DNA of 64,000 nucleotides from an uncultured Acidobacteriota bacterium (GTDB lineage Bacteria; Acidobacteriota; Thermoanaerobaculia; Multivoradales; UBA5704), in contig CAVYRF010000002.1 in NCBI GenBank assembly GCA_963770895.1, positions 320,001 to 384,000 of the forward strand, given 5' to 3'. The notes beneath the pieces were generated by a model. The model was not told where the DNA came from and did not search any database. It saw only the letters and a list, made by a program, of their open reading frames with translations. Shown here in pieces: positions 36,805-54,927 of the stretch (position 1 is the stretch's first letter; every line of letters starts with the position of its first letter). The position numbers were made by a program, and so were the translations under genes.

Positions 36805-36861
36805 CGATACCGCACTCCTTGCGCCGCCGCCGCGATGCGCCGCGGCAGCGCCGGACAGTTG

Positions 36862-38859: not shown

Positions 38860-39113
38860 AGGCCCTGTCACGCCTCCCGCTTCAGCCCGTGCTGCCGCTG
38901 CCGCCTGCGAATCGCCTGCCATCCGGCAGCCCCGGGGCCGTCCGGCCGCCGTGGGCTACCGTGGGCCACCCCGGCCCGCGGGGGCATCATGCTACACCGG
39001 GCGGCGGCTGTGAAACCTCCCGGCCGTCCGCCTCGTCTCGGTAGAAGACCGGCGGCGGCAGGGAGGCGGCACCCCGCCCCACCCCCGCCACCCGGACCCG
39101 AAGGAGCACTGCA

Positions 39114-39677
39114 ATGCTGACCTGGAAAACGATGATGGGCTGGTCCCTGATGATCTTCGGCGCCGCCGCGGCGCAGGCCAGGGCCGACCTGTGGCTGCAC
39201 ATCAAGGTGCGCGACGCCAACGAAGGCAGCAAGGTCACCCTGGACCTGCCGCTCTCCGTCGTCGAAGCCGCCATGCCCTTCCTGCCCGCAGACGCCCGCT
39301 GCTCCGGCAGCCTGCGCGTCGGCGACCGCGACCTCTCCGTGGCCGACCTCCGCCACCTCTGGCGCGCCCTCTCCGAGCGCCCGGACGCCACCTACCTCAC
39401 CGTCCAGGGCTCCGACGGCAAGGTCCGCCTGGGCCGTGAATCCAACCACCTCATCATCCGCGCCACGGATCAGAGCGCCCACCACGGCGAGCGCATCGAC
39501 ATGCGCATCCCCGCCCCCGTCGTCGACGCCCTCCTCACCGGCGCCGACGACCAGCTCAACCTGGCCGCCGCCATGACAGCGTTGTCCCGCGCCGGCGAAG
39601 GCGACCTGGTCACCGTCAACAGCCACCACGAGACCGTCCACATGTGGGTCGACGCCGACAGCAACGGCGGCCGGTAG
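39114..39677 (+). CDS. Hypothetical exported protein
   Basis: AAGGAG RBS, signal peptide, core-like codon bias. Confidence 0.7.
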   Translation: MLTWKTMMGWSLMIFGAAAAQARADLWLHIKVRDANEGSKVTLDLPLSVVEAAMPFLPADARCSGSLRVGDRDLSVADLRHLWRALSERPDATYLTVQGSDGKVRLGRESNHLIIRATDQSAHHGERIDMRIPAPVVDALLTGADDQLNLAAAMTALSRAGEGDLVTVNSHHETVHMWVDADSNGGR

Positions 39678-40031: not shown

Positions 40032-42056
40032 ATGCGGCGGCTGTGGCTTCTGCTCGGCCTCATCTCATTCATCCTTGGAGTAGGCATGCCCTTGGGGGCG
40101 AATGATCTGTGCGGTACCGTTAGCCCGGAGCTTTCATTGAACCCCAACGCCTGGACTGCCGTCGCCAGGTTGCCAGCCGCCCGCTTCGTGGTTTTCGATC
40201 CGGTTTCGAACTCTTTTGCGTTTGTTTCACCGTGCGTCCCCACCGGCGGCAAAGTCTTATCCTCGGACGAGAAGAACGTGGAAAGGCTCGATCGGCGACG
40301 CCTTGCCTTAACGACGCAGAAGATCAGCCTGCTGATCATGCCCTACAACCCACTCAACGGCGTCGTCACCTTGATATCCACTCTTGGCACCGGAACCGAG
40401 ATCGACGAAACGGTCAAGCAAGACCAGTCCACCACCACCAATACTTCGCCCGCGAATACCGCCAAATCCGGCAAAGGCACTCAGACCGACAAGAAGACGC
40501 CGCGGGCAAGCGACACGAAGCCAAGCGATCAGCATACAGCTCAGGCAGCTACGGGCGCCGGCAAAGTGCTGCAGGATGTGCAGACGAAGGCTGAGAGCGG
40601 CACGTCGCCCTCGCAGACAGCAAGCCAGAACAGGATCAAGTACGCCCCCAAGCAGAGCGGCAGGAGGGTTGGCAAGAATGCGGCCCAGTCCCAGGCAACC
40701 AGCGAGAACACGTCGGACGATGCAGCGCTTACCACTCTGTCCCAAAACGCCGGCAAGGCAGCATTTCGTCAAATGTACCAGAACACTCCTGGTACCAGTC
40801 CCGATTCCAAGGGCAAGGCAGATTACTGGGCCGAGTTGGTCTTCCTTGGCGCCCACGATTTTGACGAGCAATCCAAAGCGGCAGTTCCGGTTCTGGCGAC
40901 GTTGCATCAACATGTTGACTGCGCGACGCAACATGTCGCGGAGATGCCTATTGAGGTCAGCCGGCAATTCAGGAACGATGGTTTCAACCTGGCAAACGAC
41001 ATCACGCTCAAGCAGATCGAGGACGAGGCAAAGAAGCGCCTTGGCGTTCTGAAAAATGCGAGTACCTTCTATAAAGCGTGCACCGATGCAACCGGTGACA
41101 ATGCGCTGGAAGCCGATATCGCGGCTCTCCAGGCGAGACTGAACGCTAGCACCCAAGCGATCGACAGCCTGGCACAGGTTGCGGCCACACAGTCCAGGTA
41201 CCTTGAAATCGCCGCCGCCCTCCCAACTCCGAAAACGCTTTATGATGCTCCGATCACCGCGGATCAATGGAACAGCTGGATCAGTGCCACTCGCGCCGAC
41301 ATCAAGAACGAGCAGTCCGAGGCCCAGGCGCTGCAAACGGAGTTGCAAGACGTGTCCACTGAGGTTGGCAAGTTGCGCAGCGCCGGTGACACGTTCCTGA
41401 GCGCGGTAGCTTCACCTGCGTCGGAGATCCAGCGCTTCAACTTCGTACCGCTGCGCATGAACCAGTCAATCACGTTCAAAATCAGTCGCGGTGCGGCGCA
41501 GAAAGCCGATGGTGACAATGCGGACATCCCGGAACGGGTGAACTCGCTCACCCTGCTGTCGGCTCCAGCCTACCGGGTGCGGTTGGGGGCGGGCGCCGTA
41601 GATTCCTGGCTGGCCAACCCGACTTTCAAGGCGGGGGAGAAGGTAGGCTCGGGGGCGAATGCCAAGACGATCATCTCTGCCGACGACACCGGCGGCAGCG
41701 TTCTGCCCGCGGCCTTCGCCTATCACCATTGGGGCTATCGCTGCCCGTTCCTCGAAGCGACAACGATGGAGCGCCTGCTGCCGACCTTCTCGGTCGGCGT
41801 GGCCGCGGACGGATCCAAGACTTTGCAGCAGGTGCTGCTCGGTCTCACTTGGCCGTTAGCCGACGGTTTTGCGCTCAATGCCGGGTGGCATTGGGGAGAC
41901 GTCAACGGCCTTGAAAAGGGCCTGCACCTGGGCGATGCGGTACCGTCAAGCACCGACGTTTCCACCCTGGTGAGCAAGCGCTATACGGGCAGGGCTTACG
42001 TCGGCATTATCCTCAACTCGGACACGTTCCAGGGGCTGCGCGGCAGTAACAAGTAA
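40032..42056 (+). CDS. Hypothetical secreted protein with coiled-coil middle and possible C-terminal beta-barrel
   Basis: 674-aa ORF, signal peptide, heptad-like helices, amphipathic beta-strands at C-terminus; lower GC. Confidence 0.7.
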   Translation: MRRLWLLLGLISFILGVGMPLGANDLCGTVSPELSLNPNAWTAVARLPAARFVVFDPVSNSFAFVSPCVPTGGKVLSSDEKNVERLDRRRLALTTQKISLLIMPYNPLNGVVTLISTLGTGTEIDETVKQDQSTTTNTSPANTAKSGKGTQTDKKTPRASDTKPSDQHTAQAATGAGKVLQDVQTKAESGTSPSQTASQNRIKYAPKQSGRRVGKNAAQSQATSENTSDDAALTTLSQNAGKAAFRQMYQNTPGTSPDSKGKADYWAELVFLGAHDFDEQSKAAVPVLATLHQHVDCATQHVAEMPIEVSRQFRNDGFNLANDITLKQIEDEAKKRLGVLKNASTFYKACTDATGDNALEADIAALQARLNASTQAIDSLAQVAATQSRYLEIAAALPTPKTLYDAPITADQWNSWISATRADIKNEQSEAQALQTELQDVSTEVGKLRSAGDTFLSAVASPASEIQRFNFVPLRMNQSITFKISRGAAQKADGDNADIPERVNSLTLLSAPAYRVRLGAGAVDSWLANPTFKAGEKVGSGANAKTIISADDTGGSVLPAAFAYHHWGYRCPFLEATTMERLLPTFSVGVAADGSKTLQQVLLGLTWPLADGFALNAGWHWGDVNGLEKGLHLGDAVPSSTDVSTLVSKRYTGRAYVGIILNSDTFQGLRGSNK

Positions 42057-42092: not shown

Positions 42093-42124
42093 CGGCGCTC
42101 CCAGGAGCGCCGGCGTTTGCTTTT
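42093..42124 (+). terminator. Putative intrinsic terminator
   Basis: CGGCGCTC-ccag-GAGCGCCG hairpin followed by GCGTTTGCTTTT. Confidence 0.5.
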
Positions 42125-42146
42125 ATCCCGCAAAAACGGTCAGCGC

Positions 42147-43120
42147 GCCGCAGCCGGCGCGGTGCAGGTCGGTGGGGGCCAGGGTGGGGAGCAGGCGACG
42201 GAGGTCGCGCAGGACCAGGGGCGGGGACAGCGAGCGGCGGATCTCGGCCAGGCCGGTGCGCCAGTGGCGGGCGGCGAAGCGCCAGAAGCCGCGGTAGGTG
42301 AGGATGTCCAGGGTGTCGCGCAGGGAAAAGCTGCCGCGGCGGTAGCCCTCCCGCTTCCAGGCGAGGAGCGCATTGGGGCCGGCTTCGACCTGGCCGCTGG
42401 TCATGCGGGTGAGGTGGAAGCCCAGGAAGGGGAAGCTGGGGTCGGGGACCGGGTAGATCAGGCCGCGGACGCGGCTGCGGGCAGCAGGGTCCAGGTCCCA
42501 ATATTCGCCGCGGACGGGGACGATGCGGATATCCGGCCGGTGGCCGCACAGGCGGGGCACGCGGTCGGCTTGCAGGCCGGCGCAGTTGATCAGCAGCGCG
42601 CAGCTCAGGGGGCCGCGGCGGGTGTCCAGGCGCAGGGCGCCGGGGCGGTTGGGGTCGGGGCGCGCGGCCAGCAGGCGGGCGCCGGTCACAACGTGGCTGC
42701 CGGCGGCGGCGATGCGCCGGGCATAGGCGTTGGCGACGGCGGGATAGTCGACGATGCCGGTTTCGGGCACCCACAGGGCGGCCAGGCCGCCGGCCTGGGG
42801 CTCGAAGTTGCGGATGTCCGCGGCGTCCACAAGCTGCAGGCCCGCCAGGCCGTTGTCGCGGCCGCGGCGCTCCAGGGCGGCCAGCGCCGGCAGCTCTGCG
42901 GGGGTGACCGCCACCACCAGCTTGCCGCAGCGCTCGTGCGCGACGCCCTCTTCGGCGCAGAAGCGATATAGCGCTTCGCGGCCGGCGACGCACAGGGACG
43001 CCTTGAGCAAGCCGGGCTTGTAGTACAGCCCCGAATGAATGACGCCGCTGTTGTGGCCGCTCTGGTGGGCGGCCAGGCGGTCTTCGGCTTCCAGCACGGT
43101 GACCCGCAGGTCGCCGCGCG
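42147..43120 (-). pseudogene. lhgO: Internal 974-bp duplicate of lhgO lacking both the N-terminal FAD-binding motif and the C-terminus
   Basis: Colinear with 52083-53056, same length, scattered substitutions. Confidence 0.9.
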
Positions 43121-43239
43121 GGCCATAATCATTCTGTGCTCCGATCTGCACGAGGCGATCGGCAGCCGGCTGTCGATGCGCCAGCCGGAGCACCGTAAGT
43201 CGCAAGATTCTCCCGGCTGCGAGGGAAAGAGGTCCCCGA

Positions 43240-44562
43240 GTGCCTTCCGAAAATGATGCCGAGGATGTCTGGCTGTTCCTGCGCAGCCTTCTGCTCCTTG
43301 GCCTCTTGCTGGTCGTTCTCGTCTCCGCCTGGCCTGTTGCCCCTCTTCTCGCCGTCGCGCTGGCCGGTTGGCGGCTGACCAGGGGACGCTACGCCGTCGG
43401 CTGGATGACCTTACACGAGTTCCTTGGCCCGGTTGCCGCGGGTCTTTCGGTGCTCTGCGCATCGCTGCTCCTGCTCAACGCCTTCGCACTTGGCCAATCC
43501 TGGCCCTTGGCGATCGAAGACTGGGTCGTGCGTATGAGCCTGCGCCTGTGTGATGTGCTGAAGATTCGCCCCGTGGCGGTGATCAGCGGCCTCGCCTGCC
43601 TGCTGCTCGTCAGCTTTGCCGCGCCTCGTCTCAAGCTCGTCAGGAAGATGATCGAGCTGAGAGGTATCCTGGACAAGGTCTGCCTCTTCCTCATGGTGAT
43701 CACCTCCTTTTCTCTCAGCTCGGCGCTCCCGATTAACCATTGGCAACTGGACTCTTCCATCGGGAGGTTCGCCTCCTATGAGGCGAACCTCAACCGTGAG
43801 CGCCGCGCGGCCGACCGAAGAAGGGTTCTGGCGGCGCTCGACGCGGGCGCACATCGGTTGACGTCTACCGATCTGGCCAACCTGCAGCAGCTGTTGGCAT
43901 CGATCGCGGCGCACGTGCCAAGCGGCGACGAACAAGAGGTCGTTCGCGGCGTCCTGCGGGCCGGCCTGGGAAAGGATGTTGAGGCCGCTGCCCCCGGAGC
44001 CGGTGAGACCGGCGAGCCAGCGTTGTCCGACGACACCGCGAAGCTGCGAGACGAACCCGTACCCCATGCCGTCCTCCAGGTGCCCACCAGCGAAGCAGAG
44101 TTGGACGAGGCCGAACGCCAGGTGCACGAAGAAGAACAGCGCGCCGACCAAGCGGAGCGCCGCATGCAGGAAAGCCGCGCCGCGCTGGCTGAATTTCTCA
44201 GTACGGTCGTGAGCGCCGCAATTCCCGAGCTCCATCCCGTCTTAAATGCATACATTGACGATCTGATAGACGTTGCGATCAAGCGGGGCATGGGCGCCGA
44301 TGCCGAGGAAGTCGCAGCCGACAAGGCGAAGAAGATCCTGCGGGCCTCGACCGCGCCTGACGACTCCCAAGCGCCGGAGGAACCCGCCCTGCGGGCCGCG
44401 AGAATGAGAGACTTGGTGGGGAATGTCGCGACTGAGGTCAGGACCGAAAAGCGAGCCGACGCCGCCGCGGCCGCCGCAGCAACAGCGGCCGAGGCCGCAC
44501 GCGAAGCAGTGGAGAGAGAGCAGGCCAGGGCGAGGGAAAGAGCTGTAGAAACAATTCGCTAG
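43240..44562 (+). CDS. Hypothetical membrane protein with C-terminal coiled-coil region
   Basis: About 4 N-terminal TM segments, E/R/A-rich helices; start uncertain. Confidence 0.6.
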   Translation: MPSENDAEDVWLFLRSLLLLGLLLVVLVSAWPVAPLLAVALAGWRLTRGRYAVGWMTLHEFLGPVAAGLSVLCASLLLLNAFALGQSWPLAIEDWVVRMSLRLCDVLKIRPVAVISGLACLLLVSFAAPRLKLVRKMIELRGILDKVCLFLMVITSFSLSSALPINHWQLDSSIGRFASYEANLNRERRAADRRRVLAALDAGAHRLTSTDLANLQQLLASIAAHVPSGDEQEVVRGVLRAGLGKDVEAAAPGAGETGEPALSDDTAKLRDEPVPHAVLQVPTSEAELDEAERQVHEEEQRADQAERRMQESRAALAEFLSTVVSAAIPELHPVLNAYIDDLIDVAIKRGMGADAEEVAADKAKKILRASTAPDDSQAPEEPALRAARMRDLVGNVATEVRTEKRADAAAAAAATAAEAAREAVEREQARARERAVETIR

Positions 44563-44682
44563 AACCATGCAGATTGCATACGAAATTACGCAACATGCGA
44601 TACGCTGCTGTCCTCATCAGGAATCCCCTATGGGAGCACAGCCTTGGCACAGCAGCCCTGAGGACCCGCAGCGTGCGCGGCG

Positions 44683-44796
44683 ACTTGGCGGCGCTCTGGG
44701 GCGAGGCAATGCGGGGACCCGCTGGCGATACGGCTCACCGCCAAGCCGCTTGCAGCCCCGCGAGCCCGCAGCGCGACGACAAGGGGAGCCCTCCCG
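44683..44796 (+). repeat. Structured dispersed repeat, copy B (core only)
   Basis: ACTTGGCGGCGCTCTGGGG...GACAAGGGGAGCCCTCCCG matches 51754-51867. Confidence 0.88.
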
Positions 44797-45280
44797 GCAG
44801 GCCGCGGACGACTACAAGACGGGGATCTTTGTGCGGCGCGACGGCGCCGAGGCGAAGGGCTGCGACAGCGCACTCCGCGGTCTCACCGGGCGGGCAGTAA
44901 CCCTCATCTGGCCATTTCGCCCGCGTCTTTCGCCTGCGCCTGCTGTGCGTCGTGCGACGGGAAATCCGCTGGCCTTCCAGGTTGAGTCGCAACCGCGGGA
45001 CGGCACCGAAGAGCCGCGGCAAACGTGGCGACGCTTGCGCGCATGGTGGTCACCAATTGCAGATCGAACGCAGCAGCCATCTCAACTGCTTGCTGCGTTA
45101 ACAACCAGGATCTTTGCGAACAGGCTCTCTTCGCGCACACCATGCGGACTACCGGCAGCAACACGCCCTCCAAAAGCGGCAGTGAGATACCGGCAGCTTC
45201 GCCCAGGCGCGCGCGTTGCGGCGAGCCGCCCTGTCGCGTGGAAGGCTCAGCGGGGGGGCAGCTGCCGCGCGTAAGCGGAT

Positions 45281-45553
45281 TCAGCCGCCGTAGGGGTCAG
45301 GTGCTGATCCTTCGTCGGTTTGCGGGTTGGAAGAGGTGCTGGCCGGCCGCCGGATCATCCCCTTGGCAGGTGCTGCCGTGGTCTGCCGCAGCGGCGCCAC
45401 TTCGCCGGAGAGCCATCCCCAGAGCCGGATCAACGGCTCCCAGACCGCGACTGGCCTGCTGCTCTGCGCCTGGAGCGATAAGGCGAAGGATGAAGTGGAG
45501 GCCACTGTCAAGGCAAGGAGTAGGGCGAGGGCGATGATGCGAGGGATACGCAT
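45281..45553 (-). CDS. Small secreted peptide precursor ending TDEGSAPDPYGG
   Basis: AAGGAG RBS, signal peptide MRIPRIIALALLLAL..SFA, Trp-rich amphipathic helix, acidic DxGxxxDPxG tail. Confidence 0.7.
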   Translation of the reverse strand: MRIPRIIALALLLALTVASTSSFALSLQAQSSRPVAVWEPLIRLWGWLSGEVAPLRQTTAAPAKGMIRRPASTSSNPQTDEGSAPDPYGG

Positions 45554-45581
45554 GCGGGACTCCTTCCGCGGAGGCGATGCG

Positions 45582-45920
45582 GCCGGCCTGGGGCGAACCG
45601 ACCAGGCGCTTGCCATCCTGCTGCAGGTGCGCGCCGACTTCATCGCCACGGACAACTTCTACGTTGCAGCGCTGGTGACTCTGGAGCTGGCGGAGGTCCA
45701 CGCCGGCCTGGGCCACACGGCCGAGGTCAAGGCGTTGGCCCGCGAGTCGGAGCCGGTGTTCGAGAACCAGCAGGTGCATCGCGAGGCGCAGCGGGCGCTG
45801 GCGCTGTTCCGCCAAGCAGCCGAGGAGGAGAGGGCCAGCGGCGAGCTGCTCCGTCAGCTCATCGTCTACCTCCCCCGTGCACGCCACGATCCGCAGCTGA
45901 GCTTCGCCGCGAGGGCATGA
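45582..45920 (+). pseudogene. C-terminal fragment of a TPR-like helical-repeat protein
   Basis: AGLGRTDQALAIL..AALVTLELAEVHAGLGHTAEVKALA..VHREAQRALALF; no plausible start or N-terminus. Confidence 0.65.
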
Positions 45921-46066
45921 GCGTCGTGCCAGCACCGTAGCGGCAAAGCGCGGCCCATGCCCGTCAGGGGTGCCGCCTGAATATCCTATGCAGGCGAAGT
46001 ATATTTTTGATCTCGCCACTCGGTCGTCCCACGAAGGGATTGCCTTCATGCATCGCGCCAGGAAAC

Positions 46067-46121
46067 AGGCGACCGAGGCGCCGCTGGAACCGTTGCTGGC
46101 AGTCCGACGAGGGGCGGATGG
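46067..46121 (+). repeat. Structured dispersed repeat, copy D (5' part)
   Basis: CAGGCGACCGAGGCGCCGCTGGA..GCTGGCAGTCCG..GAGGGGCGGATGGC matches 51687-51742. Confidence 0.85.
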
Positions 46122-46260
46122 CACGACCTGGGAGTGCCGCCCGGGCGAGCTCTTCTCCCGGGTGTCGCCGCCGATCGGTGCGCCGCTGCCGAACCAGCGC
46201 GCCTACGTCCTGGCCGGCGAGCTGGAGCCGTCGCCCGTCGGCGTCGAGGGCGAGCTTGGT
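46122..46260 (+). pseudogene. Relic of an NRPS adenylation domain
   Basis: TTWEC..PPIGAPLPNQRAYVLAGELEPSPVGVEGEL resembles the A-domain consensus PIGRPLPNTRAYVLD..L.PVPVGVPGEL. Confidence 0.7.
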
Positions 46261-46546
46261 GCGGCGCTCACTCCGCCGAACGCAGGAAATCCAGGAAGCG
46301 CTCGAAACTGCGCCGCGGCAAGCCGGCGATCGCGCCCAGGACAGCCGACGCGCAGCATGGCCGCTTGACGGCCCCCCACGGCACGCAATAGCATTCCAGC
46401 AATCCACCGAGTTCCCTTCGTCGAGGAGGCGTCGCATGCGGCCTTTCGTCAGTAGAGAGCGCCCGCCAGGGATTCTGCACCGGGCAGCGCTGAAGTTGCT
46501 TGCGGAAGGCAGCCGATGGCCACGTCGGCGATGCGTTTGATTTGCC

Positions 46547-48613
46547 ATGGACCCCTTCGTACGCCAGGTCATGCTGGGCTCCGCTCGGTGGTTCATACCG
46601 CCCAACGCCGGGCTGTTTCAAAGCTGCGCCCTTCGCCCCCTTGATCGCGAAGCCGCGTCAAGCGATGAAGCCGCCGATTCCCTGCAGATCATCGCTTTTC
46701 CGGTGGCCGTACGACCGCGCTCCGTGATCGGGCAAGATCCTCTGGCACTGAAACGTCTGTTCTTTTCCCCACTGGTGGTACGCCTACATTACGTGGCCCA
46801 GCTCGCCACCACCTATCTACGAGCCAATATCGACGCGCGCCACTGTCGGCTTTCTCATGCCCTGGGCACTCTCTGTACCCTGAGTTATCTTTGCGACATG
46901 CTTGTCGCAAGGATTGCGAGTGATCCCAAAATCGCCAGCGTCTGCATGCCCACGACGGACGAAGTCATCTTCGCCTTCACCTACGCGGCGTTGCATGACG
47001 CATTTCAAGGGCCCTTCGGCCATACCCTTGATGCCTTGCGCGAAGAGCTGATCGGCGGCCTGGACGCCAGCCGGCGATTGGACAAGACCCTGCTGAACTT
47101 CATCGTCGGCAGTGCGCTCGAACTCAAAGAAACCGGCACAATACCGGGCATGCCGGAGCCGCCGAAGGCGATAAGCGCGCTCTGCGAGGTCCTTGACCAG
47201 GCAGTCGCCGCGCCACTTGGTCTGGATACCACTGCGCTGCTGCGCTGGGTCCACAATGCGAGCCTGCGCGACCCCTCGTCATTGAGCGCCAGCGCGCGGG
47301 AGCGGAGGCGCCAACTGGGATGGCTCTACAGCCTGCTCGAGGGACCGGTGGACGCGGATCGCTGGGACTATCTTTGGCGCGATACTCTCCATCTCGGCTT
47401 CACTCGCGATCACGATTTGATCTCTGAACTGCTGAGGGACTTTTGCGACGATCTCAGGGTGCATTGGGATGGCGAGCAATCGCGCCTGACGGTAAGCCAG
47501 CCGATCGCAAGACGCCTGGACGCAAATTTCTTCGCGCTGCGCAACGAGCTCTATCGCAATGTTTATGAGAATCCAGAGAAGCGGATCATCGACGGCATCC
47601 TATTGCGCTGTATCTATCTTGGCCTCCTCAGACATGCCCCCAAGCCGGCGCGATGGCCGTTTTGGGCACAGGATTTTCACTATTTTGAGTTCCTGCTCAA
47701 CTTTGTCCATTTGACCGACGCCGACCTTCTGTCCATTCTGGAGCAGATCGATAACCCTCTGCTGGCGCTATTCGCGCGCGACATCAGGACCTATCCCGCG
47801 ATCCGGCTCTTCTGGCAAATGATGCTGCCCAGCGAGGAAATCAAAACCACGCTCATCACGTCGTCGCAGAAGCTGACGGCCTTTAAGTACACCGGCATTC
47901 AGCCGCCATCCTGGGCGTCGCCGGACAAGCCCGATTGCACTCCCGCGGAGCGCGTCATCGACGCGCTTACCGCGACCAAGCAGCACCTGCTGGCGCAAGG
48001 CGAGGTGGCGACGATTGGCGGAGACCGGCTCAGATCCCTGCTCCTGCACTGCTCGATCCTCCCCAAGCGACCGGCTCGAGTGCTGCAATTCGAGCGTCTC
48101 GCCTGGAAACTGGTCAAAGCGTTGCTCGCGGGCGCGGGCATTGTCGAATTAATTCACGGCTCGTTCTTGCAAGCCTTGGCGACGACGAGACTTGCGGCTA
48201 ACCAGGCCGGCCAGGAGGACATCGCTTCGCTGCTCGACGAATGCCCGCCATTGTTCGTGTCGTTTCCGTGGATTGCGAGCCTCTCTGAGATGTCGATCAG
48301 CGAGATGTCGCGCGAGCCGGACGAAGAGACGCAGCTTTATGTGCGCACCGACAACGGCCACGTGCAGGCTCGCAAGGCCAAGCCCCTGGACAATGACCCC
48401 GCCATGTACGTAGCCGTGGCTGGCTATCCGTTACACGCCACGAGTCAGTTGAATCCCAGGCAGATCGAGCGGTTCGAGTTCGCGGCGTGCTGGGCGTTGA
48501 ACCTCCTGCTGGACAGTGGCTGTGAGCTTGCGTTGCCGCGCGACCTGGTGACCCCTGAAATGGATTCGGTGATCATCGACTTTCTGTCGCCCGCAGGCCT
48601 GTTCACGGAGTGA
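46547..48613 (+). CDS. SAMHD1/dNTP triphosphohydrolase-like HD protein with unknown C-terminal extension
   Basis: RLHYVAQLA, ARHCRLSHALG, AALHDAFQGPFGH, DADRWDYLWRD, RNELYRNVY. Confidence 0.82.
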   Translation: MDPFVRQVMLGSARWFIPPNAGLFQSCALRPLDREAASSDEAADSLQIIAFPVAVRPRSVIGQDPLALKRLFFSPLVVRLHYVAQLATTYLRANIDARHCRLSHALGTLCTLSYLCDMLVARIASDPKIASVCMPTTDEVIFAFTYAALHDAFQGPFGHTLDALREELIGGLDASRRLDKTLLNFIVGSALELKETGTIPGMPEPPKAISALCEVLDQAVAAPLGLDTTALLRWVHNASLRDPSSLSASARERRRQLGWLYSLLEGPVDADRWDYLWRDTLHLGFTRDHDLISELLRDFCDDLRVHWDGEQSRLTVSQPIARRLDANFFALRNELYRNVYENPEKRIIDGILLRCIYLGLLRHAPKPARWPFWAQDFHYFEFLLNFVHLTDADLLSILEQIDNPLLALFARDIRTYPAIRLFWQMMLPSEEIKTTLITSSQKLTAFKYTGIQPPSWASPDKPDCTPAERVIDALTATKQHLLAQGEVATIGGDRLRSLLLHCSILPKRPARVLQFERLAWKLVKALLAGAGIVELIHGSFLQALATTRLAANQAGQEDIASLLDECPPLFVSFPWIASLSEMSISEMSREPDEETQLYVRTDNGHVQARKAKPLDNDPAMYVAVAGYPLHATSQLNPRQIERFEFAACWALNLLLDSGCELALPRDLVTPEMDSVIIDFLSPAGLFTE

Positions 48614-48619
48614 GCGGCG

Positions 48620-49084
48620 ATGAGATGCCACTACTGCGGCGGTGAATCGCGCGTGGTGGATTCGCGGCCGCTGCAAGATGGCATCCGTAGGCGACGGCAA
48701 TGCATTAGCTGCGGCAAGAGGTTCACGACCCACGAGCGCTTGGCGGCGCTTGAGCTCAAGGTCGCCAAGGCGCGCGGCCGTCCGCCTGAGGAGTTTCAGG
48801 CGGCGAAGATTGCGGCCACCATCAAGCGGGTGTGCAAAGGGCTGGAGGTGCCGCCCGGATGCGCCGAGCAAATCGCCAGAAAGATCGAGCGCGAGCTGGC
48901 GGACAAAAACGTCGCCATGATCAGGACGGCTGAGATCGCCGCGATCCTCATGAATGAGTTAGGCGCTGTCAGCGAGGCGGCGCTGGAACGATTTGCCATC
49001 AATTACGCCTTGGATGGGGACGCGGCCCAGAGGCGGCCGGCGTCTTCCATGGAACAGCAGATCCCTCTCTTCGGAGAGGAGTAG
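48620..49084 (+). CDS. nrdR: NrdR-like transcriptional regulator (Zn ribbon plus divergent ATP cone)
   Basis: MRCHYC..SRVVDSR..IRRRRQCISCGKRFTTHER; 6 bp after the HD gene. Confidence 0.85.
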   Translation: MRCHYCGGESRVVDSRPLQDGIRRRRQCISCGKRFTTHERLAALELKVAKARGRPPEEFQAAKIAATIKRVCKGLEVPPGCAEQIARKIERELADKNVAMIRTAEIAAILMNELGAVSEAALERFAINYALDGDAAQRRPASSMEQQIPLFGEE

Positions 49085-49098
49085 CGGGCAACGTGAGG

Positions 49099-49365
49099 TC
49101 AGCGGATTTCGACGCTGCCGATTTCGACCAGCCGCTGTTTGCTGCTGACAAGGTAGACGATCACGAAGGGGTCGGGATCCCATACGCGCTCTCCCGCGGT
49201 GCCGGCGGTGAGGCTGGGAGCGAGCTCCCTGGAGCCGGCAGGCTTGGGATCGTGCTCCAGGCTGAGCAAACGCAGGGCCAGCTCCCTGGCCAACGCGACG
49301 TCGCGCTTCGCCAGCGACCGTACGGCCTCGGCGGCGGGCTCCAGCACTGTAACCTTATAGATCAA
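49099..49365 (-). CDS. RelE/ParE-family toxin
   Basis: YKVTVLEPAAE..L..DPKPAGSREL..ERV...FVIVY; TTG start overlaps the antitoxin stop. Confidence 0.7.
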   Translation of the reverse strand: MIYKVTVLEPAAEAVRSLAKRDVALARELALRLLSLEHDPKPAGSRELAPSLTAGTAGERVWDPDPFVIVYLVSSKQRLVEIGSVEIR

Positions 49366-49627
49366 GGTCGATGGACGCCAGGAAGTCGCGCAGATCGTAG
49401 CGGGGGCCCTGCAGGGCGCGCCGCAGCTGCTCGGCTCGTATACTGTCTTCGATCCCCTGCAAGCGCTTGAAGGTTTCGGCCTCGACCAGGTACGCGGCCG
49501 TTTGATCGCGCTTGCGGATCTCGATCGGCCGGCGGGAAGTGCGCACCTCGTCGACCAGGGAAGAAAACTGCGACTTAGCCTCTGCAATGGCCACAGACCT
49601 GATTCCACCGTCACGCGCTCGACTCAT
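49355..49627 (-). CDS. Phd/YefM-family antitoxin
   Basis: SVAIAEAKSQFSSLVDEV...PIEIRKR..AAYLV; GGAGG RBS. Confidence 0.85.
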   Translation of the reverse strand: MSRARDGGIRSVAIAEAKSQFSSLVDEVRTSRRPIEIRKRDQTAAYLVEAETFKRLQGIEDSIRAEQLRRALQGPRYDLRDFLASIDLDL

Positions 49628-49668
49628 CTGCAGACCTCCCTCGGACTTGCGGTGGACGGGTGATGACC

Positions 49669-49719
49669 TGACCAGAAAGCCCAGATGGACAGTTTAGACC
49701 AAAAAGCCTAACATGGTCA
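49669..49719. promoter_or_regulatory. Tandem operator-like repeats between the divergent TA and cyclase genes
   Basis: TGACCA-gaaagcccaga-TGGACA and AGACCA-aaaagcctaaca-TGGTCA. Confidence 0.45.
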
Positions 49720-49720
49720 A

Positions 49721-50530
49721 ATGGATCATGGCGTAGTCGTCTTTGCAGATGTCCTCGGCTTTGGGCGCCTTTCGGAGACGGTGCCGGCTGGTGCGGAGGA
49801 TTCTCTGGCGGCTATCGCGAGCCTCCTGTCGCGCACCGATGTCCTGGGCGACGTGCTCAACCGCCAGAGATGGGCGGCACGTTACGGCCTGAGCGATTCG
49901 CTTTTCCTCGTGGCCACGGACGCCGGAGAAGCCGTCGCGGCGGCAGCGGAGCTCTTCTTCAACCTCGCTTACGTGACGCACGGCGGCCCGACCCCGGTGT
50001 TGATCCGCGGCGGGATCGCGGCCGGAGAGATCCTGCAAGTGGGTCCGCTGTTCCCCGAGTCAGCCATGGCAAACCTCGTCGGACCGGCGGTCGTTCAGGC
50101 GGTGGGCCTGGAGAAGACCTCTCTCAAGGGGCCGCGGCTTTTCATCACCAGCGCACTCGCGGTGGAGATAGAGCGACGCGGCTCCGGGTTGGGCTGGTTG
50201 CTGGATCACCAAGGGAGCACGTGGGAGATCCTTTGGCCGCTGCCGCCGCAACCCGATGCCGCAAACGGCCGCCTGATCGGCGAGCTGTGCGACAAAGCGC
50301 TTGGGCTGGTGGAGCGCAACGCCGGCAACCCGGATGCCGGCAAGCACTACCTTGGATATCTGGATTTGACGATCCGTTCGCTGTCGCGCCTGCTCGCGAC
50401 CCGCCGGGAGCAGGCGATGATTGCCATCGACGCCTCCCGGCTCAAGCAAAGAGCCAACCTGCTTGAGGCGCTCCTGATGTCGCCAGAGTTGGCCTTGGCA
50501 AAGATGCTCGGCAGGCTTGCCGGTCTGTGA
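49721..50530 (+). CDS. Class III nucleotide cyclase-like protein
   Basis: VFADVLGF, LSDSLF, IRGGIAAGE, GPAVVQAVGLEK..GPRLFI. Confidence 0.7.
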   Translation: MDHGVVVFADVLGFGRLSETVPAGAEDSLAAIASLLSRTDVLGDVLNRQRWAARYGLSDSLFLVATDAGEAVAAAAELFFNLAYVTHGGPTPVLIRGGIAAGEILQVGPLFPESAMANLVGPAVVQAVGLEKTSLKGPRLFITSALAVEIERRGSGLGWLLDHQGSTWEILWPLPPQPDAANGRLIGELCDKALGLVERNAGNPDAGKHYLGYLDLTIRSLSRLLATRREQAMIAIDASRLKQRANLLEALLMSPELALAKMLGRLAGL

Positions 50531-50890
50531 TCCTGCGCTGGCGGAGCGCTGGGGAGTGCGAGAAGCGGGCACCAATCCGAGCCGCTGCGTCGACAAGTTA
50601 CCGGAAAAGCGCTGCGAGCGCTTCCTTGTGGGCGCCGAGCTGACCCGTCTCGGCGAAGTGTACGCTGCGGCCGAGCGCAGCGACGCCGAGCGCCGGCGGT
50701 CATCGCCGTTCTCCGGCTCTTGGTCCTGACCGGCTGCCGGAAGTCCGAGATGCTGACCCTACGCTGGGAGGACGCGGACCTTGAGCGCGGTGCCCTGCAC
50801 CTGCCGGATTCCGGGACCGGCCCGAAAAGCGTGCCGCCGGGCGCCGCCGCGGCCGAGATCCTGGCCAACCTCGCGCGTCGCCGGCAACCC
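50527..50890 (+). pseudogene. Frameshifted tyrosine integrase remnant
   Basis: AERWGVR..NP..VDKLPEKRCERFL..EL.RLG, then in another frame LTGCRKSEMLTLRWEDADLE..LPDSGTGPK. Confidence 0.8.
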
Positions 50891-50940
50891 GCACGTCGTT
50901 CCTGGCGAGCGCCCGGGTTCGCATTGGGTCAACGTCGACC

Positions 50941-51098
50941 CTTGGCTTACCAGTGCGAGGAACACTCGGAATCGTGTTGCTCGGCAAGAACACGGAATGC
51001 TTGTCGCAGCTCGCCCCTTGCTCGAATCTCTTCGACAAGCTGGGGTGTACCTGTCCGACTCAGTGATGAATCGCGCTCTGAGGCTCGTAGGAGAATAG
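50941..51098 (+). pseudogene. DUF3368 (PIN-like) C-terminal fragment
   Basis: LGLPVRGTLGIVLLGK, frameshift, then GMLVAARPLLESLRQAGVYLSDSVMNRALRLVGE*. Confidence 0.7.
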
Positions 51099-51197
51099 CG
51101 CGGACCGATGGCTGGCAGCTCGTTGCGATGAGGCGCAGTCACCAGCAATGCCTGCGTCGGGCACGCCGGGAATTCCGCGGCAAGGCGCACGCGGCTG

Positions 51198-51685
51198 TTA
51201 CTTCCGCCTGGAATAAGCCTGCCACAACACCCACAACACCGCGGTCAGGGCGATTGCGGCGACGAGTGCGAGAAAGGCGAGCGTGAGGCTCCCGTGCCCC
51301 CGGTCGTACCGCATCGGCTCGAGGCAGGATTTGGTCGGGTGCTGCGGATCGTACGCCACCCGCACCTCCCTGCCAACTGGATATTGGGCGGCGATGCGCC
51401 GCGCCTCGTAGAGCCCTTCGTAGATTTCGTCGAAGCAGAGGCCCTCGCTCTCGTAGTACGTGCTGCTGCCCGGCTCGAGCTGATAGCTATAGATCAGGTC
51501 CAGATGGTAAAGCGCCGTAGAGTTGCCAAAACGGGCACGGCGGTAGTGGGAAAAGTGGATGCTCGACTGCAGGATCAGGCCTTCGCCTTGGGCCAACCCG
51601 TCGCCTCATGGTGGAGCCGTAGGTTCCGCGCCTCCGAGAAGGCCAGGATGGCCACGTAGAGGAACGCGCAGGCCATTTCGATTTC
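51198..51685 (-). pseudogene. DUF3592-family membrane protein with a frameshift near 51590; 5' end abuts repeat C
   Basis: TM helix..EATGWP in one frame, GEGLILQS..YSY..YPVGREVRVAYDPQHP..S.LE plus TM helix in another. Confidence 0.65.
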
Positions 51686-51911: not shown

Positions 51912-53159
51912 CTACGCGTGGGCCAGCGCGCCGGCGGCGATTCCGGCGATGTGCTGGCCGATGCTCAGGGAGGCCGTGGCGGCGGGAGAGGGGGCGTTGA
52001 GGATGTGGAGGGTGGGGGGGGTCGAGATGACGTGGAAGTCGTCGATCAGGTTGCCCTGGGGGTCCAGTTCCATGGCGCGGATGCCGCAGCCGGCGCGGTG
52101 CAGGTCGGTGGGGGCCAGGGTGGGCAGCAGGCGGCGGAGATCGCGCAGGACCAGGGGCGGGGACAGCGAGCGGCGGATCTCGGCCAGACCGGTGCGCCAG
52201 TGGCGGGCGGCGAAGCGCCAGAAGCCGCGGTAGGTGAGGATGTCCAGGGTGTCGCGCAGGGAAAAGCTGCCGCGGCGGTAGCCCTCCCGCTTCCAGGCGA
52301 GGAGCGCGTTGGGACCGGCTTCGACCTGGCCGCTGGTCATGCGGGTGAGGTGGAAGCCCAGGAAGGGGAAGCTGGGGTCGGGGACCGGGTAGATCAGGCC
52401 GCGGACGCGGCTGCGGGCGGCGGGGTCCAGGTCCCAATACTCGCCGCGGAAGGGGACGATGCGGGTATCTGGCCGGTGGCCGCAGAGGCGGGCGACGCGG
52501 TCGGCTTGCAGGCCGGCGCAGTTGATCAGCAGCGCGCAGCTCAGGGGGCCGCGGCGGGTGTCCAGGCGCAGGCCGCCGGGGCGGCTGGGGTCGGGGCGCG
52601 CGGCGAGCAGGCGGGCGCCGGTCACAACGTGGCTGCCGGCGGCGGCGATGCGCCGGGCATAGGCGTTGGCGACGGCGGGATAGTCGACGATGCCGGTTTC
52701 GGGGACCCACAGGGCGGCCAGGCCGGCGGCCTGGGGCTCGAAGTTGTGGATGTCCGCGGCGTCCAGCAGCTGCAGGCCGGCCAGGCCGTTGTCGCGGCCG
52801 CGGCGCTCCAGGGCGGCCAGCGCCGGCAGCTCTTCGGGTGTGACCGCCACCACCAGCTTGCCGCAGCGCTCGTGCGCGACGCCCTCTTCGGCGCAGAAGC
52901 GGTACAGGGCTTCGCGGCCGGCGACGCACAGGGACGCCTTGAGCGAGCCAGGCTTGTAGTACAGCCCCGAATGGATGACACCGCTGTTGCGGCCGCTCTG
53001 GTGGGCGGCCAGGCGGTCTTCGGCCTCCAGCACGGTGACCCGCAGGTCGCCGCGCGCGGCTAGCGCCATGGCGGTGGCCAAGCCGACCAGGCCGCCGCCC
53101 ACGACGGCGACGTCGCAAGCGGCCGGCAGTTCCGATGACCGGTTGGCCGGGCCGCTCAC
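51912..53159 (-). CDS. lhgO: L-2-hydroxyglutarate oxidase
   Basis: VVGGGLVG, QSGRNSGVIHSGLYY, INCAGLQADR, PFRGEY, NAPSPAATASL. Confidence 0.92.
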   Translation of the reverse strand: MSGPANRSSELPAACDVAVVGGGLVGLATAMALAARGDLRVTVLEAEDRLAAHQSGRNSGVIHSGLYYKPGSLKASLCVAGREALYRFCAEEGVAHERCGKLVVAVTPEELPALAALERRGRDNGLAGLQLLDAADIHNFEPQAAGLAALWVPETGIVDYPAVANAYARRIAAAGSHVVTGARLLAARPDPSRPGGLRLDTRRGPLSCALLINCAGLQADRVARLCGHRPDTRIVPFRGEYWDLDPAARSRVRGLIYPVPDPSFPFLGFHLTRMTSGQVEAGPNALLAWKREGYRRGSFSLRDTLDILTYRGFWRFAARHWRTGLAEIRRSLSPPLVLRDLRRLLPTLAPTDLHRAGCGIRAMELDPQGNLIDDFHVISTPPTLHILNAPSPAATASLSIGQHIAGIAAGALAHA

Positions 53160-53211
53160 CGGCACGCAACCGCTCCCGGCGCGCCGGCCAGGGAGGGGCG
53201 GCTGGCCGGGG

Positions 53212-53934
53212 TCAGGGCTGGAGCCTTTCGATCGTCCATTCTTCACCACCGGCGCCACCATCGCCACCATCACCGCCAGCGCTGCTAGCGCTGCCGTCGC
53301 CGCCGGCGGCGGCTTCGCCGCGAGGGCCGGCGTCGCGGCGGCGGTAGACCAGGCGGTCGTGGAGGCGATTGCGGCGGCCCTGCCAGAATTCCACCCGGAT
53401 GGGGCGAAGGCGGTAGCCGCCCCAGAAGTCGGGCGCCGGGATGTCGCCGCCGGCGAAGCGCTGGGCGGCGGCGGCGTAGGCGTGCTCCAGGTCGGCGCGG
53501 CCGGCGACCGGTTGGCTCTGGCGCGAGGCCCAGGCGCCGAGCCGCGAGGCGGCGGGGCGGGTGGCGAAGTAGGCGGCGGTTTCGGCGCGGCTGGTCTGCT
53601 CGACCTGGCCTTCGATGCGCACTTGGCGGTCGAGCGCCGGCCAGTGGAAGGCCAGCGCCGCGTGGGGATTGGCGGCCAGGTCGCGCGCCTTGCGGCTGCC
53701 GTAGTTGGTGAAGAAGACAAATCCGCGCTGGTCGTATCCCTTGAGCAGAACGGTGCGGGCGGAGGGCCGCCCCTGGGGATCGACGGTGGCGAGCGTCATC
53801 GCCGTGGGGTCCAGCACGTCGGCGGCAAGGGCCTGCTCCATCCAGGCGCGGAACTGCGCGACCGGCTCGGGCGCCAGGTCGCGCTCGTCCAGGCCGCCCA
53901 GGGTGTAGTCGCGGCGCAGGTCGGAGACGTCCAT
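53212..53934 (-). CDS. pdxH: Pyridoxamine 5'-phosphate oxidase
   Basis: LRRDY, PSARTVLLK, FFTNYGSRKA, EFWQGRRNRLHDR, WTIERLQP. Confidence 0.95.
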   Translation of the reverse strand: MDVSDLRRDYTLGGLDERDLAPEPVAQFRAWMEQALAADVLDPTAMTLATVDPQGRPSARTVLLKGYDQRGFVFFTNYGSRKARDLAANPHAALAFHWPALDRQVRIEGQVEQTSRAETAAYFATRPAASRLGAWASRQSQPVAGRADLEHAYAAAAQRFAGGDIPAPDFWGGYRLRPIRVEFWQGRRNRLHDRLVYRRRDAGPRGEAAAGGDGSASSAGGDGGDGGAGGEEWTIERLQP

Positions 53935-54686: not shown

Positions 54687-54927
54687 GGGCCGATTGTATG
54701 CCGAAGTGACGGCCAGACAGGACGGCCGGGGGACCGGCGCGCGGCCGTGGTTCGTCCACGGCGCTACTTCTGACATCTCCCGAAGGGATTTGATAACGCG
54801 GCCGGGACAGCACTCCGCAACCGGTGATCGAATCACGTCCAAATAGCTGTAGCAAAGCGATTTGCAGGATTGATCAGATTTCTCGCGCAACTTGACTTAC
54901 GCCTCTTTAACGCCTTACATTCAGGCC

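Follow-up and report, generated by a model that had tools for sequence, protein, structure and literature searches.

The 64-kb stretch of DNA analysed here, referred to as the window, contains a pair of genes that is best interpreted as an accessory operon composed of a SAMHD1-type dNTPase and a dedicated regulator, NrdR2, which would lower dNTP pools, plausibly for defence; the probability of this reading is estimated at about 0.5. The first gene (46547..48613, plus strand) encodes P0001, an HD phosphohydrolase of 688 aa with SAMHD1 fold and a predicted dNTP triphosphohydrolase. The second gene (48620..49084, plus strand) encodes P0002 (NrdR2), a NrdR paralogue of 154 aa composed of a Zn ribbon, an ATP-cone and an acidic tail. 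Both reading frames of the initial annotation are present, on the same strand and separated by 6 bp. Regulated depletion of dNTPs is an emerging theme of immunity, represented by SAMHD1 in humans and by dGTPases and Clover in bacteria, while to our knowledge the restraint of these toxic enzymes is understood in few cases only. The locus described here suggests a different candidate brake. At a distance of 6 bp, the gene for the SAMHD1-fold enzyme is followed by that for a paralogue of the repressor of dNTP synthesis.

Unlike SAMHD1 and EF1143 enzymes, P0001 escapes the models of Pfam, NCBIfam and PADLOC, with zero matches at E<=1. The relationship becomes visible at the level of structure. The AF2 model of P0001 (pLDDT 92.9, pTM 0.94) aligns with residues 25–684 to the core of human SAMHD1 (residues 113–599, 4bzc_B) with a Z-score of 28.1 and an r.m.s.d. 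of 5.6 over 440 residues, and to EF1143 of E. faecalis (2o6i) with a Z-score of 26.0. All of the best 50 structural matches are SAMHD1 or EF1143, the Foldseek match to a SAMHD1-type fold has an E-value of 6.9e-10, and the profile of the HD family retrieves SAMHD1 chains from the PDB with an E-value of 1.9e-8. The SAMHD1-type motifs reported in the initial annotation are indeed found throughout the family (RLSHALG, HDAFQGPFGH and DADRWDYLWRD). By contrast, its proposal of an unrecognised C-terminal region of about 280 aa as a domain of its own did not hold. In the model this region is the C-terminal lobe of SAMHD1 enlarged by insertions, and since the SAMHD1 core extends over nearly the whole of P0001 and the catalytic residues are kept, P0001 contains no additional, novel domain at its C-terminus. 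Compared to the SAMHD1 core, P0001 is about 200 residues longer owing to these insertions. It lacks the SAM domain and shares 14–18% identity with SAMHD1 and EF1143.

Active site residues were assigned by HMM alignment to SAMHD1 in combination with a 13-row alignment of the HD family. As described for SAMHD1 in PMC7311409, the HD metal ligands are H167, H206, D207 and D311, H215 is the general acid with D218 as its partner, Q149, L150 and Y374 confer deoxyribose selectivity, and R164, K312 and R366 bind phosphate. The metal ligands correspond to H104, H150, D151 and D271 of P0001, which are invariant or near-invariant in the 13 rows. The acid pair, H159 and D162, is located in the sequence GPFGHTLD; H159 is near-invariant, and one of the 12 full-length rows carries Asn instead of D162. 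Also conserved in the family are the deoxyribose gate (Q85, L86 and Y340, equivalent to Q149, L150 and Y374) and the phosphate-binding residues R101, R272 and R332, corresponding to R164, K312 and R366, with an exchange of Lys for Arg at the second position. A further difference concerns H210 of SAMHD1, which is replaced by Gln (Q154) in the HD family, and no residue was assigned as equivalent to H233. P0001 thus shares with SAMHD1 and EF1143 the fold, the metal ligands, the His/Asp acid pair, the Gln-Leu and Tyr gate and the phosphate-binding Arg residues. From fold and active site residues, the dNTP hydrolase identity already assumed for the HD protein appears credible, and P0001 is predicted to act as a dNTP triphosphohydrolase.

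P0002 matches the Zn_ribbon_NrdR (E 2.8e-15) and ATP-cone (E 2.1e-8) families. On TIGR00244 it reaches 78.9 bits and stays below the curated cut-off of 124.65, which characterizes it as a divergent NrdR. The same genome encodes a canonical NrdR scoring 194.2 bits on this model (C2:2532492-2532932, 2.2 Mb away), so that P0002 is a second copy and not the only nrdR of the genome. NrdR2 proteins form a subfamily of about 30 members, mostly from Acidobacteriota MAGs, which separates as a clade with 100/99 support from nine canonical rows.

Both NrdR (TIGR00244; S. coelicolor, PDB 7p37) and NrdR2 combine a Zn ribbon with an ATP-cone and share the CxxC pairs (C3, C6, C28 and C31 in NrdR2), the DNA-binding elements VVDSR and RRRR and most nucleotide-contacting residues. 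Among the conserved DNA-reading residues D14, R16 and R23–R26, the first two correspond to D15 and R17 of S. coelicolor NrdR, which are required for box binding according to PMC9110341. Residues V48, K50, E57, F59, K63, F125 and Y129 of NrdR2 are equivalent to the nucleotide-contacting V48, K50, E56, F58, K62, F124 and Y128. With S. coelicolor NrdR as reference, the inner ATP site retains K50, E57 and F59 with R51 changed to A51, and the outer ATP/dATP site retains K63, F125 and Y129 with V127 changed to N128 and Q72 to K73. Because of these three exchanges, the ligand logic of NrdR2 may differ from that of NrdR. Besides its altered dATP-discriminating site, NrdR2 differs from NrdR by a loop before GIRRRR that is shorter by two residues, by a conserved C-terminal Q-x-x-L-F tail, and by its occurrence away from nrd genes and alongside a canonical NrdR. 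The subfamily thereby points to a reuse of the NrdR scaffold outside nrd regulation.

The C-terminal tail of NrdR2 consists of an acidic variable linker followed by Q-[IFLYM]-x-L-F, which lies within 0–14 residues of the C-terminus. In P0002 the motif comprises Q147-I-P-L-F151 (codons at 49058..49072, plus strand). Across 27 rows of the subfamily, Q147 and L150 never vary and F151 is near-invariant, and 26 of the 27 NrdR2 proteins carry a Q..[LM]F pattern within their last 30 aa, versus one of 85 canonical-type matches. The tail resembles the motif of β-clamp-binding proteins, whose conserved C-terminal Qxx[LM]F-type sequence it shares and for which PMC9690074 gives the C-terminal consensus QL(S/D)LF. 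Prediction of a complex between NrdR2 and the DnaN of its own genome resulted in a score of 0.56 versus 0.01 for the best control, a pass that solved clamp-peptide complexes may explain. The runs agreed in at least 56% of contacts, with a partner pLDDT of at least 43. The prediction lends weak support to binding of NrdR2 to DnaN. Titles and abstract openings retrieved by a literature search for NrdR and sliding clamp report no clamp binding by an NrdR-type protein. That NrdR2 is a clamp-tethered ATP/dATP sensor, which docks by Q-x-x-L-F and controls a SAMHD1-type dNTPase in the HD-linked lineages, seems rather unlikely. If true, dNTP destruction would be coupled to the state of the replication fork of either host or invader, providing a bacterial counterpart of the replication link of SAMHD1 and the first NrdR-type protein acting through the replisome, beyond nrd promoters.

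In the accessory operon envisaged here, NrdR2 would sense adenine nucleotides through its ATP-cone and would restrain or time the destruction of dNTPs by P0001. This could be achieved by transcriptional repression of the HD operon through a putative operator or, alternatively, by repression at the RNR promoter, whose NrdR box NrdR2 should be able to read; the Q-x-x-L-F tail may in addition tie NrdR2 to the replication clamp. The module would thereby lower dNTP pools, most plausibly as a defence directed at phages or other DNA that invades the cell, as with bacterial dGTPases and Clover. Neither the NrdR-box consensus nor the genome's own RNR-promoter box has a match in the 64-kb window at <=3 mismatches, which leaves autoregulation of the HD operon by way of a canonical operator unsupported. 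In agreement with the initial annotation, nrd genes are not found nearby. The single gene for an RNR large subunit is located 2.2 Mb away and is preceded by the perfect NrdR-type palindrome CACTAGATATTGTG, the only zero-mismatch site of this type in the genome. With its DNA-reading residues conserved, NrdR2 could in principle bind CACTAGATATTGTG, which would be compatible with a two-fold action in which the enzyme destroys dNTPs and NrdR2 silences RNR genes of host or phage, blocking the refill. However, the canonical NrdR already serves the RNR promoter and the outer nucleotide site of NrdR2 is altered (V127 to N128). Moreover, NrdR2 occurs without the enzyme in five out of five genomes searched and the enzyme apparently also occurs without NrdR2, so that the two activities do not form a fixed system. 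Such a concerted action is considered improbable.

The pairing of both genes is real but optional. HD and NrdR2 genes are found together on four of the 13 contigs of the HD family. Besides the window, the pair was read in sequence at the metagenome locus L005, where the gap amounts to 3 bp, whereas two further pairs were deduced from contigs of equal length in bp. HD relatives with 70, 53 and 46% identity to P0001 are accompanied by NrdR2 proteins with 68, 50–55 and 42–44% identity to P0002, indicating that HD proteins and their paired NrdR2 diverge in parallel. Conversely, NrdR2 stands alone at seven loci of six Acidobacteriota MAGs, and a HD relative is absent from all five NrdR2-bearing MAG genomes searched. 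Three HD contigs (4756, 22249 and 86526 bp, matched by equal bp) list a cyclase-like neighbour and no NrdR2; with at least three such contigs, the regulator appears dispensable for the enzyme. Around eight more distant HD relatives from a sample of the phylum, no gene resembling NrdR or the cyclase lies closer than about 1.5 kb. Conservation of the pair, as initially expected, is thus confirmed with respect to its recurrence, including L005, but not as the obligate co-occurrence expected of a toxin-antitoxin pair with HD as toxin and NrdR2 as antitoxin, each gene being found without the other. This independence, together with the surrounding patchwork of orphan genes, would also agree with HD and NrdR2 being functionally unlinked neighbours that met by chance on a mosaic mobile segment. 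The same-strand gaps of 3–6 bp in both readable loci, the divergence in parallel of all four pairs to as low as 42–46% identity and the position of the HD-linked NrdR2 proteins on basal branches of the subfamily tree render this explanation very improbable.

Both families are rare and so far confined to uncultured soil Acidobacteriota-type genomes. The HD family comprises 13 proteins among 5.8 billion searched, or eight clusters among 1.84 billion representatives at E<=1e-30, and is absent from every other species-representative genome searched. A profile of the wider HD family gave no match in two genomes sampled from the same family. Full-length NrdR2 was found solely in the source genome among 201 genomes of the class and in none of four same-family genomes sampled. 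The segment itself is distinguished by its composition, with a GC content of 0.60–0.64 at 46–50 kb compared to 0.71–0.78 at 52–58 kb, which corroborates the lower-GC island noted before. The integrase relic reported within it corresponds to a possible integrase fragment at 50720..51286 (plus strand), which matches the PHROG integrase family phrog_1 weakly (E 3.2e-6, residues 1–55 only) and has no match in Pfam. The HD/NrdR2 pair is probably an accessory operon acquired horizontally. The region around it is a patchwork of orphan genes.

Alternatively, P0001 could trim dNTP pools as a housekeeping enzyme of a slow-growing soil bacterium, with NrdR2 as a lineage-specific second sensor that is co-transcribed in some strains. 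The structural match to EF1143 (Z 26.0), a SAMHD1-type dNTPase with a housekeeping, non-defence role, is in line with such a function, as are the ordinary chromosomal contexts of NrdR2 at four of the seven MAG loci, where mscL and a sortilin/BNR gene are its neighbours, its coexistence with canonical NrdR in two of five MAG genomes and the lack of a known defence gene among the adjacent genes. A housekeeping function would, however, be expected in close relatives, and HD is found in none of two and full-length NrdR2 in none of four genomes of the same family. Extreme rarity and patchiness of the HD family (13 in 5.8 billion) and the location in a low-GC segment with a toxin-antitoxin pair and an integrase fragment likewise argue against this possibility, which is regarded as doubtful.

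Downstream of the HD/NrdR2 genes, the window encodes a toxin-antitoxin pair on the minus strand and a cyclase-like protein, both anticipated by the initial annotation. Convergent with P0002 lies a gene for a ParE/RelE-like toxin (about 49099..49365, start approximate). The copy in the window has no family match and was assigned via its counterpart at L005 (4528-4794), which matches ParE_toxin weakly (E 0.0055). The adjacent antitoxin of the Phd/YefM family (49355..49627) is identified by Pfam PF02604 (E 3.9e-11) and TIGR01552 (E 1.2e-6) and is 77% identical to the L005 copy over 83 aa. P0270 (49721..50530, plus strand, 269 aa) is transcribed divergently from the toxin-antitoxin pair, which separates it from the HD/NrdR2 genes. 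It belongs to a family of 79 proteins and matches no model in Pfam, NCBIfam or PADLOC. Its profile, however, retrieves an adenylate cyclase from the PDB (E 0.002) with both metal-binding Asp residues aligned, and its model (pLDDT 92.9) matches Rv1625c (7yzk) in Foldseek with an E-value of 1.7e-6. D10, D59 and R96 are invariant in the family, and D10 and D59 align to the Asp residues of FADIVGF and GDSYM. By predicted fold and the two metal-binding Asp residues, P0270 is class III nucleotidyl-cyclase-like, with a C-terminal helical bundle. The gene is present in two of 401 genomes of the class. The recurrent link of the HD gene to the ParE/Phd pair and the cyclase-like gene, like the Q-x-x-L-F tail, goes beyond the initial annotation; these neighbours might belong to the module as additional components or simply travel with it.

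These neighbours raise the question whether the functional unit is formed by the HD enzyme and the cyclase-like protein, with or without ParE/Phd, as a signal-controlled dNTPase similar to Clover, NrdR2 being an optional addition. Against such an arrangement, P0270 is encoded by a separately transcribed gene beyond the toxin-antitoxin pair and lacks the Asn and Arg of what we take to be the cyclase catalytic motif. The cyclase-like family, with 79 members versus 13 HD proteins, is too large for most of its members to be accompanied by HD, and in genome G164 the ParE-like/Phd/cyclase-like trio stands without HD, flanked by a two-component system and a permease. The cyclase-like gene nevertheless accompanies six of the 13 HD members compared to four of 13 for NrdR2, where the six comprise the window and L005 by sequence and the contigs of 6995, 4756, 22249 and 86526 bp, which were matched by equal bp. 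Retention of the class III fold with both metal-binding Asp residues would suit a signalling role, and Clover provides a precedent for a nucleotide-synthesising partner that restrains a dNTPase (PMC12265719). On balance, a unit of this kind is judged unlikely, and the operon of dNTPase and dedicated NrdR2 regulator is preferred.

No known defence gene was found near the pair. P0001 and P0002 gave zero matches at E<=1, and 14 neighbouring ORFs zero matches at E<=0.01, to the known defence models of PADLOC-DB v2.0.0 (2023), a release that precludes recognition of Clover since it contains no model for it. An anti-phage role of the locus is proposed by analogy, for which Clover, composed of the dNTPase CloA and the nucleotidyltransferase CloB, offers the closest known system, compared here on the basis of its published description. 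Clover is anti-phage, and its nucleotide-synthesising partner can restrain the dNTPase, as described in PMC12265719. In both systems a dNTPase of the HD superfamily would be restrained by a co-encoded partner, which senses or produces a nucleotide signal, and a cyclase-like gene of nucleotide-synthesising type is often located near the HD gene. In contrast to Clover, the partner in the HD/NrdR2 locus is a Zn-ribbon/ATP-cone protein and not a Pol-β nucleotidyltransferase, and P0270 displays a class III cyclase fold, not that of a nucleotidyltransferase, and is transcribed separately. Bacterial dGTPases that act in defence on their own (PADLOC 'dGTPase'; Tal et al. 2022, cited in PMC12265719 and PMC13519002) resemble P0001 in predicted dNTP hydrolysis and in a patchy accessory distribution, but P0001 belongs to the SAMHD1/EF1143 branch instead of the Dgt type, has no PADLOC match and is accompanied by its own regulator gene.

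A candidate promoter resembling the sigma-70 consensus (46365..46394, plus strand; TTGACG, 18-nt spacer, TAGCAT; assigned by consensus match) precedes the HD gene by about 150 nt and is the one promoter-like site in front of the HD/NrdR2 pair. In total, the consensus scan yielded four promoter-like sites between 45800 and 50700, compared to a mean of 0.6 in shuffled sequences. An element similar to the candidate promoter of the HD operon, TAGCATTC, is found upstream of the stand-alone NrdR2 gene in locus L030.

According to the best-supported reading, the locus forms an accessory operon for the regulated destruction of dNTPs, which combines a SAMHD1-type enzyme with a dedicated nucleotide sensor derived from NrdR. 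The enzyme, P0001, is encoded by an ORF of 688 aa (46547–48613), which is separated by an intergenic gap of 6 bp from the same-strand ORF of the 154-aa NrdR paralogue P0002 (48620–49084). A sigma-70-like site (TTGACG, 18-nt spacer, TAGCAT) is situated at 46365–46394, and the GC content is 0.60–0.64 over 46–50 kb of the window compared to 0.71–0.78 over 52–58 kb.

P0001 has no match in Pfam, NCBIfam or PADLOC at E≤1 and none in PHROGs. A search of 5.8 billion clusters delineated an HD family of 13 proteins including P0001; among 1.84 billion representatives, its relatives comprise 8 clusters at E≤1e-30, whereas the 321 obtained at E≤0.001 have mainly the HD core in common. Compared with the PDB, the family profile matches SAMHD1 (E 1.9e-8) and EF1143 of E. 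faecalis (E 7.8e-8). An AlphaFold2 model of P0001 built from 80 sequences reached a pLDDT of 92.9 and a pTM of 0.94, and 34 of the 35 Foldseek matches listed out of at least 500 are SAMHD1 chains, the remaining one being E. faecalis EF1143 (4lrl). Residues 25–684 of the model can be aligned with residues 113–599 of human SAMHD1 (Z 28.1, rmsd 5.6, 440 residues aligned). Therefore, the C-terminal 280 aa, which the initial annotation had described as an unrecognised region, do not form a new domain and represent the C-terminal lobe of the SAMHD1 core with insertions.

The roles of the active site residues, as described for SAMHD1 in PMC7311409, were transferred to P0001 via the HD family alignment and a profile alignment to SAMHD1. 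By this assignment, the metal ligands (H104, H150, D151, D271), the general acid pair (H159, D162), the deoxyribose gate (Q85, L86, Y340) and the phosphate binders (R101, R272, R332) are kept, SAMHD1 H210 is changed to Gln (Q154 in P0001), and H233 of SAMHD1 has no assigned counterpart. We read P0001 as a putatively competent dNTP triphosphohydrolase.

P0002 is composed of an NrdR zinc ribbon and an ATP-cone and scores 78.9 bits on TIGR00244, the cut-off of which is 124.65. Since the canonical nrdR of the genome is located elsewhere (C2:2532492–2532932, 194.2 bits), P0002 represents a second, divergent copy. A search of 5.8 billion proteins yielded 26 close relatives of P0002 at 95–208 bits, compared to 86 bits at most for canonical NrdRs, and in a tree of 33 subfamily and 9 canonical rows this subfamily, named NrdR2, forms a single clade with 100/99 support. 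NrdR2 keeps the two CxxC pairs, the RRRR motif and D14/R16, the equivalents of which (D15 and R17) are required for box binding by NrdR of S. coelicolor according to PMC9110341. Likewise kept are the nucleotide-site residues V48, K50, E57, F59, K63, F125 and Y129. Changes are found at the equivalents of R51 (to Ala), of Q72 (altered) and of V127 (to Asn or Asp), the position within the site that tells dATP from ATP. Within the tree, HD-linked NrdR2 rows branch at the base, with the stand-alone rows nested above them as a crown group (84/86 support), a topology compatible with an older HD-linked state, given moderate support and a root assumed on the canonical branch.

The single RNR large-subunit gene of the genome (C2:2578804) is preceded by a perfect NrdR-type palindrome, unique in the genome at zero mismatches, which is positioned just 5′ of a TTGACA −35 element (866–881 of the RNR locus L066; G000:C2:2578169–2578182). 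No clear second box was seen in this promoter at a distance of about 31 bp, as would be usual; the start of the 860-aa ORF, called at L066 796, is probably placed too far upstream. The window gave 0 matches to two consensus forms of the NrdR box with up to 3 mismatches, and no box was found in the locus of the canonical nrdR (L001). Upstream of the stand-alone NrdR2 genes and two HD operons, no shared palindrome was obvious by eye.

Behind a variable acidic linker, the C-terminus of NrdR2 carries a conserved Q-x-x-L-F motif. The C-terminal 30 residues contain the pattern Q..[LM]F in 26 of the 27 subfamily proteins versus 1 of 85 canonical-type matches, and the motif matches the consensus QL(S/D)LF given for beta-clamp binding at C-termini in PMC9690074. 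A complex prediction with the P0002 tail (residues 105–154) and DnaN of the same genome gave 0.56 compared to 0.01 for the best control, which weakly supports an interaction: of 80 solved complexes 58 pass the mark applied, and of 110 mismatched pairs 2 pass; values up to 0.60 account for only 7 of the 80 solved complexes and for both passing mismatches. Between runs at least 56% of the contacts agree, with a partner pLDDT of at least 43. Because clamp-peptide complexes have already been solved, the pass may reflect no more than likeness to these structures. A link between NrdR and the sliding clamp was named in no title or opening of an abstract in the literature searched, which also yielded no account of the tail.

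The conservation of the HD/NrdR2 pair, for which the initial annotation had proposed a search, holds in part: NrdR2 accompanies 4 of the 13 HD family members, but it also stands alone in 7 loci, and HD family members occur for which no NrdR2 is listed. In the metagenome locus L005, a 698-aa HD relative (53% identical) is followed after 3 bp by a 154-aa NrdR2 (55% identical) and, as in the window, by a ParE-like/Phd pair and a cyclase-like gene downstream; upstream of the HD gene there is no synteny with the window. Two further pairs were assigned by contigs of the same size, 6995 bp (P0003/P0017) and 2247 bp (P0014/P0039). HD and NrdR2 identities drop in parallel (70/68, 53/50–55 and 46/42–44%). 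By the same, indirect kind of matching, a cyclase-like protein and no NrdR2 are listed for the HD contigs of P0005 (4756 bp), P0008 (22249 bp) and P0004 (86526 bp); the status of P0007 and P0009 (contigs of 2080720 and 59853 bp) is likewise derived from contig size. L005 is the only HD family member among the five loci of the metagenome scan; the other four (L006–L009) were discarded as ordinary HD proteins of 483–488 aa with 23–24% identity. Similarly, none of 16 pattern matches to the HD alignment in species-representative genomes proved to be a relative.

When 185,579 species-representative genomes were scanned with a DNA pattern, 21 loci were obtained, 7 of which, in 6 MAGs of Acidobacteriota/Thermoanaerobaculia, encode a true NrdR2. 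No HD relative is present in the flanking stretch examined of these 7 loci, and none of the five NrdR2 genomes searched contains an HD family member anywhere (0/5); their single HD-profile match (26.2 bits, E 4.7e-6, positions 74–180 of 695) covers only the HD core, lies far below family scores and was rejected. Four of the 7 loci adjoin mscL and a sortilin/BNR gene, and a canonical NrdR (about 192 bits) is also present in two of the five genomes. One Acidobacteriota MAG carries near-identical loci of mscL, NrdR2 and a 287-aa gene on two contigs (L017 5299–6111, L020 5315–5800), attributable to a duplication or else to a bin of heterogeneous strains.

When 201 genomes of the class were searched, including three flagged as unpublished (G140, G009 and G109, each with one canonical-type match), only the host genome yielded a full-length NrdR2 match (213 bits). 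NrdR-type matches were obtained in 192 of the other 200 (191 once, G041 twice) and 8 had none; those listed, 150 of the 195 matches, have scores of about 110–129 bits and end before the tail. A wide HD profile detected 9 of 401 genomes of the phylum, and no NrdR-like or cyclase-like gene is found within about 1.5 kb at the 8 loci outside the window. P0001 had no tblastn match in plasmids and phages, and viral contigs contained no relative of the HD or the cyclase-like family.

Downstream of the HD/NrdR2 pair and convergent with it are genes for a ParE-like toxin (about 49099–49365) and a Phd antitoxin (49355–49627, Pfam E 3.9e-11). Divergently transcribed from these is the gene for the 269-aa protein P0270 (49721–50530), beyond which a weak integrase fragment is located (50720–51286). 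The model of P0270 (pLDDT 92.9) has the fold of class III cyclases, with Rv1625c as a Foldseek match (E 1.7e-6), and a C-terminal helical bundle; both metal-binding Asp residues are invariant, and the protein belongs to an unnamed family of 79. Two of 401 genomes of the class yielded the cyclase-like gene, which accompanies 6 of the 13 HD family members, with the window and L005 counted and the others assigned by the same contig size. Since the ParE-like/Phd/cyclase-like trio occurs by itself in genome G164, flanked by a two-component system and a permease and without HD or NrdR genes, it is a separate module, frequently found together with the HD gene. The trio was seen in three unrelated contexts (window 49099–50530; L064 8008–9311 in G164; L005 4528–5931), and this association of a cyclase with a toxin-antitoxin pair may constitute an independent system. 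PADLOC and NCBIfam searches on 14 neighbour ORFs gave nothing useful.

By analogy, bacterial dGTPases and Clover make defence by dNTP starvation, as put forward in the initial annotation, a plausible function. Clover is an anti-phage system of the CloA dNTPase and the CloB nucleotidyltransferase, in which the partner enzyme restrains the dNTPase (PMC12265719; for the analogy also PMC13519002). PADLOC returned no match in or around the HD/NrdR2 pair. Literature searches found no report linking NrdR with anti-phage and dNTP; likewise, the literature searched yielded no account of the pairing itself, considered novel in the initial annotation.

All or part of the stretch is contained in five sequencing runs of two studies; four come from soil metagenomes and are marked 'DNA?', one is of unrecorded kind, and none of those listed is an RNA run. 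In the complete same-family genomes G070 and G370 the GlgE and ImuB homologues are 0.7–0.8 Mb apart, and thus local synteny is not conserved and no insertion site can be defined.

Immediately 5′ of the HD operon, same-strand ORFs without family matches (440, 235, 197 and 132/177 aa) occupy 43240–46540 of the window, none of which is syntenic with L005. The ORF at 45970–46368, with a faint match to an NRPS adenylation domain (E about 1e-4), may be a gene fragment. A 674-aa ORF (40032–42056) in the lowest-GC part of the window (0.585–0.614) has no match in Pfam, NCBIfam, PADLOC or PHROG and in the Protein Atlas only unnamed clusters from Myxococcota and Acidobacteriota. Two minus-strand genes for FAD-dependent oxidoreductases (DAO; 42123–43205 and 51912–53720) bracket the low-GC segment, and both regions are alike in their tblastx matches to other loci. 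At 54892–57919, a RecA-like ORF (Pfam RecA E 2.1e-14, residues 71–160) runs into the beginning of a Y-family polymerase-like ORF with an IMS domain, a pair which resembles an ImuA/ImuB mutagenesis cassette. A plus-strand ORF of 2147 aa (32677–39120) overlaps the GlgE gene (36862–38922, minus strand) and a 1205-aa minus-strand gene; in all likelihood it is a spurious open frame in antisense, of the kind typically seen in high-GC DNA.
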